Positions 1 to 4,689 of a DNA stretch of 4,816 nucleotides are shown in pieces (within the stretch, counting starts at the first letter, position 1; every line of letters starts with the position of its first letter). Source of the DNA: a virus (Duplodnaviria > Heunggongvirae > Uroviricota > Caudoviricetes); the IMG/VR virus record IMGVR_UViG_2713896737_000023. One strand, 5' to 3'. The position numbers and the translations under genes are program-made. A model generated the notes under the pieces. The model did no database searches, was not told the origin of the DNA, and saw only the letters and a list, made by a program, of their open reading frames with translations.

Positions 1-35
1 AAAATGTCAGCCAGCTGCTTTTTGTTGACTTCCAT
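1..35 (-). CDS. nu1: Terminase small subunit Nu1, N-terminal fragment (start codon at 35-33, gene continues beyond the window start)
   Basis: Reverse complement of 1-35 reads ATG GAA GTC AAC AAA AAG CAG CTG GCT GAC ATT = MEVNKKQLADI, which matches the N-terminus of lambda Nu1 as I recall it. It sits immediately downstream (in late-transcription direction) of the cos site, as in lambda. Confidence 0.8.
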   Translation of the reverse strand, partial: MEVNKKQLADI

Positions 36-260
36 TGTTCATTCCACGGACAAAAACAGAGAAAGGAAACGACAGAGGCCAAAAAGCCCGTTTTCAGCAC
101 CTGTCGTTTCCTTTCTTTTCAGGGGGTGTTTTAAATAAAAACATTAGGTTACGGCGAAGAAGAACGGAAACGCCTTAAACCGGAAAATTTTCATAAATAG
201 TGAAAAACCGCGAGGTCGCCGCCCCGTAACCTGTCGGATCGCCGGAAAGGACCCGCAAAA
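36..260. other. cos: Lambda-type cos region: cosB with Nu1-binding R-like repeats (GGAAACGACAG at 65-75, inverted copy CTGTCGTTTCC at 101-111, CGGAAACG at 165-172), cosN cohesive sequence 213-224, cosQ-like AGGACCC at 248-254
   Basis: Positions 213-224 are AGGTCGCCGCCC, the exact reverse complement of the lambda 12-nt cohesive end GGGCGGCGACCT. Flanking sequence on both sides closely matches the lambda left end (cosB, Nu1 start) and right end (CGTAACCTGTCGGATC) as recalled. R-element and cosQ positions are assigned by analogy and are approximate. Confidence 0.8.
213..224. other. cosN: cosN 12-nt cohesive-end sequence (terminase nicking site)
   Basis: Exact 12-mer AGGTCGCCGCCC (reverse complement of lambda GGGCGGCGACCT), seen directly in the sequence. 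Confidence 0.8.
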
Positions 261-275
261 TGATAATAATTATCA
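261..275. promoter_or_regulatory. Perfect 7-1-7 palindrome TGATAAT-A-ATTATCA matching the Fur-box consensus (candidate Fur operator; could instead be a packaging-related element beside cosQ)
   Basis: Seen directly: a 15-bp perfect inverted repeat identical to the 7-1-7 Fur-box core (TGATAATnATTATCA). It lies about 10 bp from the cosQ-like motif and about 150 bp upstream of the ylcI-like ORF. From memory, lambda carries a near-identical palindrome at the equivalent position. Confidence 0.35.
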
Positions 276-423
276 TCTACATGTCACAACGTGCATCTAC
301 GCCATCAAACCACGTCAAATAATCAATTATGACGCAGGTATCGTATTAATTGATCCGCATCAACTTAACGTAAAAACAACTTCAGACAATACAAATCAGC
401 GACACTGAATACGGGGCAACCTC

Positions 424-618
424 ATGTCAACGAAGAACAGAACCCGCAGAACAACAACCCGCAACATCCGCTTTCCTAACCAAATGATTGAACAAATTAA
501 CATCGCTCTTGATCAAAAAGGGTCCGGAAATTTCTCAGCCTGGGTCATTGAAGCCTGCCGTCGGAGGCTAACGTCAGAAAAGAGAGCATATACATCAATT
601 AAAAGTGATGAAGAATGA
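424..618 (+). CDS. ylcI: YlcI-like small ribbon-helix-helix-type protein (64 aa, DUF3950-like), cos-proximal accessory gene
   Basis: 64-aa ORF with a basic N-terminal tail (STKNRTRRTTTR) followed by a beta-strand/helix/helix pattern (RNIRFP, NQMIEQINIAL, NFSAWVIEACRRRL) typical of RHH DNA-binding proteins. Length and position match ylcI of the K-12 DLP12 prophage, whose gene order (rzpD, borD, ybcV, ybcW, ylcI, nohD) this window mirrors. The symbol is assigned from synteny and length, not from a sequence alignment. Confidence 0.6.
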   Translation: MSTKNRTRRTTTRNIRFPNQMIEQINIALDQKGSGNFSAWVIEACRRRLTSEKRAYTSIKSDEE

Positions 619-782
619 ACATCCCGCGTTCTTCCCTCCGAACAGGACGATATTGTAAATTCACTTAATTACGAGGGCATTGCAGTAATTGAGTTGCAGT
701 TTTACCACTTTCCTGACAGTGACAGACTGCGTGTTGGCTCTGTCACAGGTTAAGTAGTTTGAATGATTAGCAGTTATGGTGA

Positions 783-989
783 TCAGTCAACCACCAGGGA
801 ATAATCCTTCATATTATTATCGTGCTTCACCAACGCTGCCTCAATTGCCCTGAATGCTTCCAGAGACACCTTATGTTCTATACATGCAATTACAACATCA
901 GGGTAACTCATAGAAATGGTGCTATTAAGCATATTTTTTACACGAATCAGATCCACGGAGGGATCATCAGCAGATTGTTCTTTATTCAT
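783..989 (-). CDS. ybcW: YbcW-like small acidic protein (68 aa), function unknown
   Basis: 68-aa ORF on the minus strand with a GGAG Shine-Dalgarno about 7 nt upstream of the ATG at 989. Length and position (divergent from the ybcV-like gene, between it and ylcI-like) match DLP12 ybcW and a lambda right-end ORF. Synteny-based assignment. Confidence 0.6.
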
Positions 990-1274
990 TTTGTCGCTCC
1001 ATGCGCTTGCTCTTCATCTAGCGGTTAAAATATTACTTCAAATCTTTCTGTATGAAGATTTGAGCACGTTGGCCTTACATACATCTGTCGGTTGTATTTC
1101 CCTCCAGAATGCCAGCAGGACCGCACTTTGTTACGCAACCAATACTATTAATTGAAAACATTCCTAATATTTGACATAAATCATCAACAAAACACAAAGA
1201 GGTCAGACCAGATTGAAACGATAAAAACGATAATGCAAACTACGCGCCCTCGTATCACATGGAAGGTTTTACCA

Positions 1275-1685
1275 ATGGCTCAGGTTGCCATTTTTAAAGA
1301 AATATTCGATCAAGTGCGAAAAGATTTAAACTGTGAATTGTTTTATTCTGAACTAAAACGTCACAATGTCTCACATTATATTTACTATCTAGCCACAGAT
1401 AATATTCACATTGTGTTAGAAAACGATAACACTGTGTTAATAAAAGGACTTAAAAAGGTTGTGAATGTTAAATTCTCAAGAAATACGCATCTTATAGAAA
1501 CGTCCTATGATAGGTTGAAATCAAGAGAAATCACATTTCAGCAATACAGGGAAAATCTTGCTAAAGCAGGAGTTTTCCGATGGGTTACAAATATCCACGA
1601 ACATAAAAGATATTACTATGCCTTTGATAATTCATTACTATTTACTGAGAGCATTCAGAACACTACACAAATCTTTCCACGCTAA
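1275..1685 (+). CDS. ybcV: YbcV/YdfO-like DUF1398 family protein (136 aa); lambda right-end accessory ORF homolog
   Basis: ORF in the same frame as the 177-aa track ORF. I place the start at ATG 1275 because GGAAGG lies 8 nt upstream, giving 136 aa, the length of K-12 YbcV. Alternative upstream ATG at 1233; the track start at 1152 is TTG and probably not used. It sits directly upstream of bor in the same orientation, as in DLP12 and lambda. Confidence 0.65.
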
Positions 1686-1976
1686 ATCATCACGTCCGGT
1701 TTCTTCCGTGTCAGCACCGGGGCGTTGGCATAATGCAATACGTGTACGCGCTAAACCCTGTGTGCATCGTTATTAATTATTCCCGGACACTCCCGCAGAG
1801 GAGTTTCCCTGTCAGGGCTGCGGACATAGTTAATCCGGGAATACAGTGACGATCCTTCGCATCTGACATACATTAATAAATATTAACAATATGAGATTTC
1901 AACTCATTGTTTAGGGTTTGTTTAATTTTCTACACATACGATTCTGCGAACTTTAAAAAGCATCGGGAATAACACC

Positions 1977-2270
1977 ATGAAAAAAATGCTACTCGCTACT
2001 GCGCTGGCCCTGCTTATTACAGGATGTGCCCAACAGACGTTTACTGTTCAAAACAAACCGGCAGCAGTAACACCAAAGGAAACCATCACCCACCATTTCT
2101 TCGTCTCTGGAATTGGGCAGAAGAAAACTGTCGATGCAGCTAAAATTTGTGGCGGCGCAGAAAATGTTGTTAAAACAGAAACCCAGCAAACATTCGTAAA
2201 TGGATTGCTCGGTTTTATTACTTTAGGCATTTATACTCCGCTGGAAGCGCGTGTGTATTGCTCACAATAA
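1977..2270 (+). CDS. bor: Bor outer-membrane lipoprotein (serum-resistance lysogenic-conversion protein, Iss homolog)
   Basis: 97-aa product MKKMLLATALALLITGCAQQTF... with a signal peptide and lipobox (LITGC), essentially identical to lambda Bor as recalled. Convergent with Rz, as in lambda. Confidence 0.92.
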   Translation: MKKMLLATALALLITGCAQQTFTVQNKPAAVTPKETITHHFFVSGIGQKKTVDAAKICGGAENVVKTETQQTFVNGLLGFITLGIYTPLEARVYCSQ

Positions 2271-2276
2271 TTGCAT

Positions 2277-2302
2277 GAGCTGCCCATCGATATGGGCAGC
2301 TC
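2277..2302. terminator. Perfect 10-bp-arm inverted repeat (GAGCTGCCCA / TGGGCAGCTC, central ATCGAT) between the convergent bor and Rz stop codons; probable transcript-end hairpin
   Basis: Seen directly: 26-nt palindrome 7 nt after the bor stop and abutting the Rz stop. No strong U-tract on either side, so terminator strength is uncertain. Confidence 0.4.
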
Positions 2303-2763
2303 TATCTGCACTGCTCATTAATATACTTCTGGGTTCCTTCCAGTTGTTTTTGCATAGTGATCAGCCTCTCTCTGAGGGTGAAATAATCCCGTTCAGCGGT
2401 GTCTGCCAGTCGGGGGGAGGCTGCATTATCCACGCCGGAGGCGGTGGTGGCTTCACGCACTGACTGACAGACTGCTTTGATGTGCAACCGACGACGACCA
2501 GCGGCAACATCATCATGCAGAGCATCATTTTCAGCTTTCGCATCAGCTAACTCCTTCGTGTATTTTGCATCGAGCGCAGCAACATCACGCTGACGCATCT
2601 GCATGTCAGTAATTGCCACGTTCGCCAGCTTCAGTTCTCTGGCATTTTTGTCGCGCTGGGCTTTGTAGGTAATGGCGTTATCACGGTAATGATTAACAGC
2701 CCATGACAGGCAGACGATGATGCAGATGAGCAGAGCGGAGATAATCGCGGTTATTCTGCTCAT
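2302..2763 (-). CDS. Rz: Rz i-spanin (inner-membrane spanin subunit)
   Basis: 153-aa product [48 protein letters not shown]..., near-identical to lambda Rz as recalled. It has an N-terminal TMD and a coiled-coil periplasmic domain, and its start overlaps the R stop (ATGA). Confidence 0.92.
2361..2543 (-). CDS. Rz1: Rz1 o-spanin (outer-membrane lipoprotein), embedded in the +1 frame of Rz
   Basis: 60-aa product [24 protein letters not shown]... with a lipobox (VVGC) and a proline-rich mature region (PPPPPAW...PPPDW), near-identical to lambda Rz1 as recalled. Fully nested inside Rz. Confidence 0.85.
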
Positions 2764-3236
2764 ACCTCACTCTCTCTGACCGTTCCGCCAGCTTCTTTGA
2801 ATTTTGCAATCAGGCTGTCAGCCTTATGCTCGAACTGACCATAACCAGCGCCCGGCAGTGAAGCCCAGATATTACTGCAACGGTCGATTGCCTGACGGAT
2901 ATCACCGCGATCAATCATAGGTAAAGCACCACGCTCTTTAATCTGCTGCAATGCCACTGCGTCCTGGCTTTTGGGGGAGAAGTCTTTCAAACCAAGCTGT
3001 TTACGGTAAGCATCCCACCAGCGTGAAAGAAGCTGATAACGTCCGGCGGCTGTTGATTTGAGTTTGGGGTGTAGCGTGACAAGTTTGCGAGGGTGATCGG
3101 AGTAATCAGTAAACAGTTCGCCGCCAACAATAACATCATAACCGTGGTTACGTGTCGGTTGTCGCCCGTTATCCGTTCCTTCTGACCACGCCAACATATC
3201 GAGGAAGGCTTTACGCTGAGGATTAAGATTTTGCAT
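2760..3236 (-). CDS. R: Endolysin R (lambda-type lytic transglycosylase)
   Basis: 158-aa product ...[20 protein letters not shown]...[25 protein letters not shown]... matches lambda R over almost its whole length as recalled, including the catalytic Glu19 in the AWSEGTD context. The N-terminal ~6 residues differ from lambda. The start overlaps the holin 3' end by 14 nt. Confidence 0.92.
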
Positions 3237-3540
3237 TTTTCACCCCTGTCAGTCGTTCCCAGAAGTACGTCAGTGCAACCGAACCCATCGCACCACTAAT
3301 CCCCGCTGTCGCGAGAATCATGTAAATACTGAATCCACTTTCGATGCTGATCAGGCCACCAATAACACCGGTGAATCCTGATACCACTATTTGAGCCAGA
3401 GCATTTATCCAACTCCACGTTGCTTTACTCTGCTTCACATCTATCAGGTAGCGGACCAGACCGCCCCAACCTGCGATGATCAGCAAAACGAGCCAGAACG
3501 CTCCGGCAAGGCTCTCTTTTTCGTGCATATGAATAGCCAA
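3223..3540 (-). CDS. Class I holin (three predicted TMDs), not lambda S-like
   Basis: ORF immediately upstream of and overlapping R. Three hydrophobic segments (LAGAFWLVLLIIAGWGGLV, WINALAQIVVSGFTGVIGGLI, GFSIYMILATAGISGAMGSVAL) and a charged C-terminus ([11 protein letters not shown]). The codon at 3540-3538 is TTG (weak GGCGG about 7 nt upstream); the first ATG is at 3528-3526, giving 101 aa. The start is therefore ambiguous. Confidence 0.7.
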   Translation of the reverse strand: MAIHMHEKESLAGAFWLVLLIIAGWGGLVRYLIDVKQSKATWSWINALAQIVVSGFTGVIGGLISIESGFSIYMILATAGISGAMGSVALTYFWERLTGVKNAKS

Positions 3541-3642
3541 TGTTTCGCCGCCGACAAAAGGCCGGGACGTTAAATGTCAGAAATCAGGCTCACGGGGTAA
3601 TTTAACGACAAAGCACGGAGTTGATGCTCCCCACAAGCCTGG

Positions 3643-3668
3643 AATAAAAAAGCCAGCATGTAGCTGGC
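3643..3668 (-). terminator. Intrinsic terminator (distal, minus strand): stem GCCAGC/GCUGGC, loop UACAU, then UUUUUUAUU
   Basis: Seen directly on the minus strand: perfect 6-bp GC-rich stem (plus 3652-3657 / 3663-3668) followed by a U-tract (plus A-tract 3644-3651), between the Q-like gene and the holin. Confidence 0.6.
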
Positions 3669-3744
3669 AACAGAGGGCTAAGCAATATCAACTCAACAGC
3701 TGAAGACCCCCTGGCTGGGGTAGGTTGGAAGGCTACTCACCGTT

Positions 3745-3780
3745 CAGAAACAGAAAAGCCCAAGGCTTTAAACCTCGGGC
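3745..3780 (-). terminator. Intrinsic terminator (proximal, minus strand; candidate tR'): stem GCCCGAGG/CCUUGGGC, loop UUUAAAG, then UUUUCUGUUUCUG
   Basis: Seen directly on the minus strand: 8-bp stem with two G-U pairs (plus 3773-3780 / 3758-3765) followed by a U-rich tract, about 55-85 nt downstream of the candidate late promoter. Confidence 0.6.
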
Positions 3781-3837
3781 TTGAATTTGGATTACTGCCA
3801 GTGCGTACAACATTGGCAAAATATCAGATTTACATAA

Positions 3838-3866
3838 AATATATGATTTTTAATCCAGTTTTGCAA
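3838..3866 (-). promoter_or_regulatory. Candidate sigma70 late promoter (pR'-like): -35 TTGCAA (3866-3861), 17-bp spacer, -10 TATATT (3843-3838)
   Basis: Minus strand reads ...gaTATTGCAAaactggattaaaaatcaTATATTttatgtaaatctgatatttt.... The -35 overlaps the Q-like stop codon, as in lambdoid pR' arrangements. A -10-like GATATT/TATTTT in the initial transcribed region could act as a sigma-dependent pause element. Motif-based only. Confidence 0.4.
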
Positions 3867-4539
3867 TATCTTGCTGTGAAAATGTGGTCTTTTGTTTTGA
3901 ACGTGTTTTCGTTAAAAGCAATAAAGCTTGGCTATCAAGCTGTAGAAAAATGTGTTTCATTGCAACCCAGCGTTCAGTAAATGTCTCAGACCAGTTTTTT
4001 GATGTCACTCCCACCAGTGATGCCAGCTCCTGGTATTCATAGGTCTTACGCCCTGCCAGCTCGTTCTTCACATCCTGTGCCGCCAGCCAGATCAACTTCT
4101 TCAAACGTTCCAGTGTCTTACCTGCAATTTTCCTGGTACCCAACAGAGTCTTAAACTCGCTCCATGCCCACTGCGTTATGGTGACCTGATGTTCCCAGCG
4201 AACACTTTCGCTGTAACTCCACAGCAACCACGCTTTCTGATGTTCTTCGAGAGACAGAACCGCGCGGCGCCATGACGAGGTTGAGAACTCAACCTGGCTG
4301 ACCAGTGCAATGGATGAACCTTTTGCGTACGACTGCTTACCGGAAATCGGCGGATTATCCAGCGTAATCATCCTGCCAGTTACCTCATCCAGAATGCGCG
4401 GCTTCTTTCGTTTGTATGTACCAGTATCAAATTGTGCATGCTCCAGCCAGGCTTCAAGCTGTCCTTTCGTTGCTCCGCTCAAATCAGCGGTAGCCACAAT
4501 GAGTTGCTCGCGGACATACTGTAAATATTGGGTATTCAT
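3850..4539 (-). CDS. Putative late-gene antiterminator Q (229 aa, non-lambda type, no cysteines)
   Basis: 229-aa ORF with an AGGAG Shine-Dalgarno 7 nt upstream. It is directly upstream of a promoter, tandem terminators and the lysis cassette, which is the canonical Q position. It has no similarity to lambda Q as recalled and lacks any Cys, so it is not a zinc-finger Q-lambda type. Assignment is by synteny. Confidence 0.55.
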   Translation of the reverse strand: MNTQYLQYVREQLIVATADLSGATKGQLEAWLEHAQFDTGTYKRKKPRILDEVTGRMITLDNPPISGKQSYAKGSSIALVSQVEFSTSSWRRAVLSLEEHQKAWLLWSYSESVRWEHQVTITQWAWSEFKTLLGTRKIAGKTLERLKKLIWLAAQDVKNELAGRKTYEYQELASLVGVTSKNWSETFTERWVAMKHIFLQLDSQALLLLTKTRSKQKTTFSQQDIAKLD

Positions 4540-4676
4540 GCGGCAGCTCCTTTCAGTGTTTTGGCGTAATTCTTCAGTATCCGGTAATCGGTCAAAACAG
4601 AACCAGGAAAACGATATAAGCGCAGGCGCATCCAGCGGTGGCGAAGACGTTCTGCCATATAAGACTCAAACATCAT
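4536..4676 (-). CDS. Small basic ORF (about 46 aa; YlcG-like by size and position), translationally coupled to the Q-like gene
   Basis: My own translation of the minus strand: ATG ATG TTT GAG TCT TAT ATG GCA GAA CGT ... GGA GCT GCC GCA TGA = MMFESYMAERLRHRWMRLRLYRFPGSVLTDYRILKNYAKTLKGAAA. Its TGA overlaps the Q-like ATG (ATGA), and GGGGA lies 4-7 nt upstream of the two candidate ATGs. It is below the ORF-track size cutoff. DLP12 has a 46-aa ylcG directly upstream of its Q homolog. Confidence 0.4.
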   Translation of the reverse strand: MMFESYMAERLRHRWMRLRLYRFPGSVLTDYRILKNYAKTLKGAAA

Positions 4677-4689
4677 TCATTCCCCAGTT

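Follow-up and report, generated by a model that had tools for sequence, protein, structure and literature searches.

The minus strand of the virus record IMGVR_UViG_2713896737_000023 carries a non-coding leader of 309 nt between a gene for a Q-type antiterminator and a holin gene, and this arrangement raises the question by which elements transcription of the late genes is controlled and whether these elements are new. The stretch analyzed here, in the following termed the window, comprises 4,816 nucleotides and corresponds by its gene order on the minus strand to the right arm of a lambdoid prophage. In the initial annotation, the end of the Q gene and the adjoining leader had been read as a compact late-regulatory module with a promoter overlapping the Q stop codon, a pause element and two tandem intrinsic terminators, and this set had been considered unlike that of phage lambda. 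Our analysis leads to a more specific answer. With a probability of about 0.9, the region represents an allele almost identical to the late regulatory module of phage 82, residing in a prophage that occupies the emrE/ybcK (DLP12-type) locus in an O157:H7-like Escherichia coli. This module is already known as the late-gene switch of phage 82, for decades a model system of sigma70-dependent pausing. The evidence obtained directly consists of the sequence elements, their conservation, the covariation of the hairpins and the fit to published data on phage 82.

The protein encoded by the Q gene (positions 3850..4539, minus strand) comprises 229 amino acids and matches Pfam family PF06323 (Phage_antiter_Q) with an E value of 1.4e-94 over residues 4-220. 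A total of 225 of the 229 residues (98%) are identical to Q of phage 82 (accession X92588), and the four amino-acid changes are located at the C-terminus. The X92588 record ends with the Q stop codon; where it overlaps with the window, from position -35 through -19 of the late promoter pR', the two sequences do not differ. As a proxy for phage 82, we used the viral contig L026, which encodes a Q protein 100% identical to that of phage 82. The leader of L026 equals that of the window over +1..+48, and it carries both terminators described below, T1 and T2, at the same positions, T1 with a single C-to-U wobble. Because of this match, the tandem design of T1 and T2 very probably belongs to phage 82 itself. 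Phage 82 and the window agree in the -35 element and in the spacer up to -19; in both, transcripts start with AAA, the pause element is of the extended -10-like type, GCC occupies +15-17 and +25 is U. The window differs from phage 82 in that its module is placed in an apparently cryptic prophage of the O157:H7 type, with an insertion sequence (IS) element just upstream.

The anatomy of pR' can be followed base by base on the minus strand. The -35 element TTGCAA (-35..-30, positions 3861..3866) lies inside Ile-Ala-Lys codons of Q and is identical in X92588. It is followed by a spacer of 17 nt (-29..-13, positions 3844..3860) that contains the last Q codons, the Q stop codon TAA (3852-3850) and the presumed Q-binding element (QBE), and then by the -10 element TATATT (-12..-7, positions 3838..3843), which is placed outside of the coding sequence. 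The -35/-10 pair proposed earlier as overlapping the end of Q was therefore recovered with all of its elements in place. According to Wells et al. (2016; PMC4914094), the QBE of phage 82 is located between the -35 and -10 elements, within -31..+30, and the corresponding interval, 3860-3844, is the putative QBE of the window. The predicted transcription start, +1, is A3831, the first base of an initial AAA (3829..3831), in agreement with the wild-type 82 pR' transcript, which begins with AAA and exhibits stuttering there (Bird et al., 2016; PMC5001585).

The same study provides a detailed description of the initial transcribed region, and this can be compared directly with the window. The -10-like pause element of phage 82 is nearer to TATAAT than that of lambda and possesses an extended -10; sigma70 engagement occurs at an RNA length of 21; GCC at +15-17 is followed by an A/T-rich stretch; and pauses are found at +25 (U) and +26 (Bird et al., 2016). 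A 1-nt insertion at +18 places G at the pause end, which implies that +24 is G in 82 pR'. With +1 set to A3831, a register anchored by GCC at +15-17, G at +24 and U at +25, AAA occupies 3831-3829, TG 3826-3825, TATTTT 3823-3818 and GCC 3817-3815, followed by AAUGUUG, G3808 (+24) and T3807 (+25). Adding seven to the end of the pause hexamer yields +21, the length at which sigma engagement is predicted. The window accordingly contains every published descriptor of 82 pR' including the A/T-rich +18-24, and the pauses to be expected near the promoter, at +25 (U) and +26, fall on positions 3806..3807 (minus strand; T3807 and A3806, preceded by G3808).

Conservation was analyzed in 107 usable loci that encode Q82-family proteins of 58-100% identity and stem from viral contigs as well as from genomes of Kluyvera, Citrobacter, Enterobacter, Klebsiella, Raoultella and others. 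These loci contain 43 distinct variants of promoter and initial transcribed region with matched Q; over the interval -35..+60, 47 variants were distinguished. In nearly all of the loci, the start of TTGCAA precedes the last base of the Q stop codon by 17 nt, and a 17-nt spacer, TATATT and AAATCTGATAT come next. Mean conservation over the 47 variants amounts to 0.98 for the -35 and 0.95 for the -10 element, is still 0.91 at +1..+5 and 0.85 at +6..+14, and reaches 0.59 at +26..+40 and 0.46 at +41..+60. The homology among relatives ends just downstream of the unit formed by promoter and pause element: leaders of the phage 434 type diverge at +15, those of another E. coli type at +25 and those of PPompW/Stx2a-associated phages at +36. 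The sequence of the spacer varies by Q subtype, with the classes AACTGGATT, AACCGAACT, AAGTCAATT, AAATGAACT and AAGTAGATT (window and the equivalents in L006, L090 and L093-L111). The spacer classes follow the divergence of the Q proteins, which suggests co-evolving specificities of Q and QBE.

These variants also define the register of the pause element. The initial annotation had named the -10-like repeat GATATT, which is indeed present in the early transcribed region (3825-3820, +7..+12). Its final T at +12 is free to vary (T in 25, C in 12 and G in 10 variants), and T is found at +14 in 46 of the 47. Further nearly invariant positions are T6 (44/47), G7 (46/47), T9 (46/47), A10 (46/47) and T11 (47/47), with +12 and +13 variable. 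The resulting pattern, TGnTATnnT, is the signature of an extended -10 plus a -10 hexamer and places GATATT two bases out of the functional register. The sigma70-dependent pause element predicted here therefore consists of TG (+6,+7) and the hexamer TATTTT (+9..+14), joined by the discriminator-like GCC (+15..+17), and occupies positions 3815..3826 on the minus strand. A second TGATATTGC at 3690-3682 was considered as a distal pause element and rejected, as its hexamer lacks the invariant last T and more distant T2-bearing leaders contain no counterpart upstream of T2.

In both minimum free energy and centroid folds, the RNA that starts at A3831 forms a 5' stem-loop, UUGCCA...UGGCAG, at +13..+37 (positions 3795..3819, minus strand). 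Most initial-transcribed-region subtypes contain a hairpin of differing sequence at this position. The 5' arm of the stem takes in the discriminator-like GCC bases.

With regard to termination, the two tandem intrinsic terminators that had been placed ahead of the holin gene are borne out by hairpins, U-tracts and compensatory changes in both stems. T1 (+50..+86, positions 3746..3782, minus strand) consists of a 12-bp stem (3782-3756, 6 of the 12 pairs G-C) with the loop UAA, followed by the imperfect U-tract UUCUGUUUCU (tail TTCTGTTTCT at 3755-3746); the folding energy is -18.4 kcal/mol (z = -4.3). T2 (+164..+189, positions 3643..3668, minus strand) is built from a G+C-rich 6-bp stem, GCCAGC/GCUGGC (3668-3652, 5 of the 6 pairs G-C), with the loop UACAU, followed by the U-tract UUUUUUAUU (tail TTTTTTATT at 3651-3643), and has a folding energy of -11.9 kcal/mol (z = -4.0). 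T1 and T2 are the top two of 13 terminator-like sites in the window, for which 5.2 +/- 2.2 such sites are expected. When 18 T1-type hairpins were aligned, 97.2% of the cells were paired and five of ten pairs had changed on both sides; none of 500 shuffles scored as high, and slid controls collapsed. Compensatory changes affect four of the six pairs of T2 among 10 homologs, the stem variants including GCCAGC/GCUGGC, GCCCGC/GCGGGC, CCCGGC/GCCGGG and CCUGGC/GCCAGG, in each case followed by a near-invariant UUUU(U/C)UAUU. Among 65 distinct leaders, 57 contain a terminator (hairpin and U-tract) at or before +100, and at least one further terminator precedes the first long open reading frame (ORF) in 31.

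The U-tract of T1 is broken by C and G, while that of T2 is near perfect. Judged by the quality of the U-tracts, T1 is probably leaky and T2 probably acts as a backstop. For the laboratory terminator t500, an 'imperfect, GC-containing U-tract' and an efficiency of about 31% have been described. The tail of t500 presumably resembles GGGCUUUUCUGU of T1; the origin of t500 could not be established from the literature examined, and we treat the resemblance as a lead and not as evidence.

Taken together, the near-identity with Q of phage 82, the fit to the anatomy of 82 pR', the conservation in 107 loci and the covariation in the terminator stems support the layout of a Q-dependent late operon that had been suggested for this region. 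By homology with phage 82, promoter activity, pausing, Q loading and efficiency of the terminators may be expected in this prophage as follows. RNA polymerase with sigma70 would initiate constitutively at A3831 from pR' (TTGCAA-17-TATATT). Sigma70 retained on the polymerase would re-bind the non-template sequence TGaTATTTT (+6..+14), and the complex would scrunch and pause at +25/+26. The Q82-type protein, if present, would recognize its binding site on the DNA of the promoter spacer and load onto the paused complex, and the Q-modified polymerase would pass T1 and T2 into the genes for holin, endolysin, Rz and packaging. In the absence of Q, transcription would stop at T1, which is probably leaky given its imperfect U-tract, and the remainder would stop at T2 with its near-perfect U-tract. 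Counted from +1 at 3831, the two RNA products should measure about 80-85 nt and about 187-189 nt, in line with the two short RNAs of roughly 80 and 185 nt predicted earlier, and short terminated RNAs from the late promoter of phage 82 have been cited in the literature.

The genomic surroundings place this module in an E. coli prophage. Over positions 1-4689, the window matches with 100% identity a prophage that E. coli O157:H7 EDL933 carries at its emrE/ybcK (DLP12-type) locus. The leader, taken as a stretch of 330 nt, was recovered from 816 of 5426 complete E. coli genomes, 688 of which have it with at least 99% identity. Positions 4690-4816 represent the end of an IS3-family (IS1203/IS629-like) element, the transposase of which is directed away from Q. 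It adjoins ylcG 13 nt upstream, at a site where EDL933 contains the 3' end of rusA, and a search of complete E. coli genomes for the exact junction between the IS3-family element and ylcG yielded no high-identity match. The element may separate Q from upstream transcription. Upstream of Q, a ylcG-like gene, orf45, is located at 4676-4536 (minus strand). The first late gene encodes a LydA-type holin (3223..3540, minus strand; Pfam PF16083 and RefSeq annotation of the identical EDL933 locus) and is followed on the same strand by lambda-like R, Rz/Rz1 and bor, a DUF1398 gene, cos and the start of nu1. None of the small ORFs within the 309-nt leader is credible; all have 21-29 codons, mostly with TTG starts, and overlap the RNA structure elements. 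Rfam matches to miRNA families near cos (55-121) lie far below threshold and were treated as chance.

Several observations weigh against the assignment to the phage 82 module. Beyond the Q stop codon, the identity with phage 82 is drawn from published descriptors and a proxy contig and not from direct alignment, and in comparison with this proxy the spacer of the window has T for G at -15, and the stretch from the -10 element to +1 differs at -5 and -2. The promoter reaches 9 of 12 consensus matches, a score at chance level, as the window contains nine promoter-like sites versus 8.2 +/- 2.9 in shuffled sequences. In addition, the prophage looks cryptic. It is devoid of an early region and carries the IS element beside ylcG-Q, so that Q is perhaps silent and the switch may never flip; it may be permanently off, with the short RNAs alone left.

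The chance-level consensus score bears on an alternative in which TTGCAA/TATATT has arisen fortuitously and late transcripts originate at another site; a better-scoring promoter-like site is found on the opposite strand at 3813-3840. What supports the identification of pR', however, is not the score but its conservation and its agreement with published data: position, spacing and sequence are kept in 107 loci with Q identities as low as 58%, the anatomy fits the published 82 pR' exactly, the 5' end of the Salmonella RNA IsrJ has been mapped at the homologous site, and the -10 of the competing site is lost in the phage 82 proxy (TAAAAT to TGAAAT). We therefore regard a chance match as extremely improbable. 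The opposite-strand site itself, TTGGCA-16-TAAAAT (plus strand, 10/12 matches), extends over the pR' -10 and the pause element and is probably fortuitous, its -10 being destroyed in the proxy and its -35 being found only in initial transcribed regions of the 82 type. Another motif on the plus strand, TTGCAATATCTTGC at 3861-3874, constitutes a perfect CII-type box, TTGC-N6-TTGC, that shares the palindromic TTGCAA with the -35 element of pR'. The equivalent spot in the phage 434 record is annotated as paQ with a CII site. In a CII-dependent antisense promoter of the paQ kind, such a box would flank the -35 region and a usable -10 would be expected about 13 bp downstream. The box is not followed by a convincing -10, it is lost in relatives from Klebsiella and Citrobacter, and its conservation is ambiguous since it lies in coding sequence.

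The mapped end of IsrJ leads to the relationship between the predicted leader RNA and this Salmonella transcript, a stable RNA of 74 nt for which an invasion phenotype has been reported. In a permissive Rfam scan, the full-length isrJ model (RF01393) matched positions 3834-3755 with 30.4 bits (E = 0.0092), its start being located 3 nt upstream of the predicted +1, A3831. The gathering threshold of the family is 37 bits, and the score thus does not place the RNA of the window in isrJ. By position the correspondence holds, as direct sequence comparison identified isrJ of Gifsy-1 as a Q82-type pR' plus the first terminator: it is preceded by TTGCAA-AACTGGATTAAAACGGC-TATATT and begins with ...AAATCTGATATCG, i.e., an 82-type pR' with its pause element. 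Compared with the window, the Salmonella promoter has the same -35 and -10 elements, TTGCAA and TATATT, and 13 of 17 identical spacer bases (AACTGGATTAAAA...), the first 11 transcribed bases including TGATAT are shared, and the RNA ends at a terminator equivalent to T1. The architecture is also the same, with a 5' hairpin and a terminator at about +47..+72. The two RNAs diverge after +11 (UUUGCCAAUG... in the window versus CGUCGCCAUAG... in IsrJ), their 5' stems read UUGCCA/UGGCAG and GUCG/CGAC, respectively, and their terminator stems differ. In Gifsy-1, a cassette of isrK, C4-antisense and anrP is placed between Q and the isrJ promoter.

An isrJ scan of 18 related loci resulted in 14 matches above threshold (41.6-100.3 bits), 13 of which start 16-19 nt past the stop codon of a Q82-type Q gene, while the fourteenth is Gifsy-1 itself; positive loci include L004 (Gifsy-1, 2502-2608) and L102, L110, L108, L092 and others at about 2206-2280. 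These comparisons identify Rfam isrJ as the leader RNA that Q82-type pR' promoters produce up to their first terminator, and the predicted T1-terminated RNA of the window is a sister subtype of Salmonella IsrJ. The mapped 74-nt RNA in turn shows independently and in vivo, in Salmonella, that a promoter of this kind is active at this position and that the first hairpin terminates. In the papers on IsrJ examined here, the RNA is treated as a stand-alone small RNA (sRNA), and we did not find it named as a pR' leader. Further RNAs occur in related late leaders: Rfam STnc100 scored above threshold downstream of the isrJ-type RNA in L095 (3171-3358), L006 (1427-1619) and L087 (2171-2368), and tRNA genes are common there as well. 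Neither STnc100 nor tRNA genes are present in the window.

Given this kinship, the main product of the locus could be the short, T1-terminated transcript, made constitutively as an Hfq-binding, trans-acting sRNA of the IsrJ family, with antitermination being secondary or defunct. In favor of this view, the isrJ model is matched over its full length in the window and above threshold in 14 loci with a Q82-type Q, IsrJ is stable in Salmonella and linked to invasion, pR'-derived short RNAs such as StxS are able to act as sRNAs, a 5' stem-loop combined with a terminator hairpin is typical sRNA architecture, and the IS element upstream of ylcG-Q may silence Q. On the other hand, the RNA of the window stays below the 37-bit threshold and its 5' half is unlike IsrJ after +11, and conservation peaks in the DNA elements for Q loading (-35 to +17) and not in a plausible seed region. 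An sRNA function would moreover be compatible with the antitermination mechanism and does not conflict with it. We consider this view of the main product possible, though doubtful.

A different objection concerns T2, which together with roughly 60 nt downstream is also found directly before the holin genes of mEp237, which has a Qin-type Q, and of the P22-like UPF_BP1. Its occurrence behind unrelated Q genes indicates that T2 is part of a lysis-cassette segment and not specific for the Q family. On a further alternative, only one of the two hairpins would be the working terminator of pR', and T2 would be a boundary element that arrived with the lysis cassette, serving as an insulator against read-through from any upstream neighbor or as an element for mRNA end formation or stability, and not as a dedicated second stage of the Q circuit. 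The variable distance of T2 in Q82-family loci (+156 to +380), the independent recurrence of T1, e.g., in phi80 and Klebsiella phages, and the homology breakpoints that reveal a mosaic leader are in line with this proposal. Yet, irrespective of where T2 came from, each transcript from pR' that gets past T1 encounters it, and T2 must be read through for expression of the lysis genes, phi80 likewise has two annotated terminators in its late leader, and a second terminator is kept in about half of the distinct leaders. We thus judge the restriction to one working terminator unlikely and retain the tandem arrangement of the phage 82 module.

Between T2 and the holin gene, a further structured element was observed at 3585..3641 (+191..+247, minus strand). 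Its closing stem of 12-13 bp, CAGGCUUGUGGGG / CCCCGUGAGCCUG, is a long-range pairing with covarying arms and encloses a loop of about 30 nt with a conserved GCTTTGTYGTTAAAT. All 10 homologs, located before holin genes and associated with different Q families, fold alike independently (z = -2.4 to -6.1). The Rfam scan yielded no match for this element.

Comparison with other late-control systems clarifies in which sense the module is unlike that of lambda. The lambda arrangement of pR', 6S RNA and tR' resembles the window in several respects: the late promoter is constitutive, adjoins Q and contains a QBE, sigma70-dependent pausing involves a -10-like element, and the lysis genes are preceded by a short leader that is terminated after about 190 nt. 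The downstream genes R, Rz and bor of the window as well as cos are lambda-like. The Q proteins differ. Lambda Q belongs to PF03589, whereas the Q protein of the window matched PF06323 alone in the Pfam search and is thus not of the lambda type. The -10-like element is located at +1..+6 in lambda and at +9..+14 in the window, i.e., 8-9 bp further downstream, and the pause is expected at +25 instead of +16 (+16/+17); two terminators and a LydA-type holin are additional differences. The distinction from lambda made in the initial annotation consequently holds for the protein family; the notion of a new set of elements does not, since the module is the known phage 82 system. In phi80, two annotated tandem terminators are present between pR' and the holin gene, as in the window. 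The hairpin of the first is almost that of T1 (94% over 35 nt) and the second ends in TTTTTTATTCC, like T2, whereas the antiterminator is annotated as lambda-Q-like and the promoter and initial transcribed region are unrelated to those of the window. StxS from Shiga-toxin phages, encoded by a prophage of enterohemorrhagic E. coli, is likewise a short RNA produced by early termination from a constitutive, Q-antiterminated late promoter. Q and promoter are of a different type there, and an sRNA function has been demonstrated for StxS, whereas it is putative for the RNA of the window.

What, then, does the recognition of this module mean for the biology of these phages? As a textbook model of sigma70-dependent promoter-proximal pausing and Q antitermination, it does not bring new biology by itself. 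It does offer an explanation for the origin of IsrJ as a pR' leader RNA. A far-reaching combination of the above proposals would hold that the T1 leader of about 80 nt is a functional, constitutive, Hfq-dependent sRNA of the IsrJ family present in about 15% of E. coli genomes including O157:H7, that the whole isrJ family consists of Q82-type pR' leaders, and that 3641-3585 is a cis-regulatory RNA not described so far, which moves together with lysis cassettes and determines holin expression or the processing of the transcript; this combination is speculative and, taken as a whole, rather improbable. With regard to the Q proteins, the Q-lambda and Q82 families have been described as unrelated in sequence, and Q82 may not work as a closed nozzle, unlike Q21 and Q-lambda (Yin et al., 2022). 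A solved structure does not exist for the Q82 family, and because Q82 alone among the Q families lacks a solved structure or a settled mechanism, the collection of Q and promoter variants assembled here represents a ready co-variation set for mapping the specificity between Q82 and its QBE.

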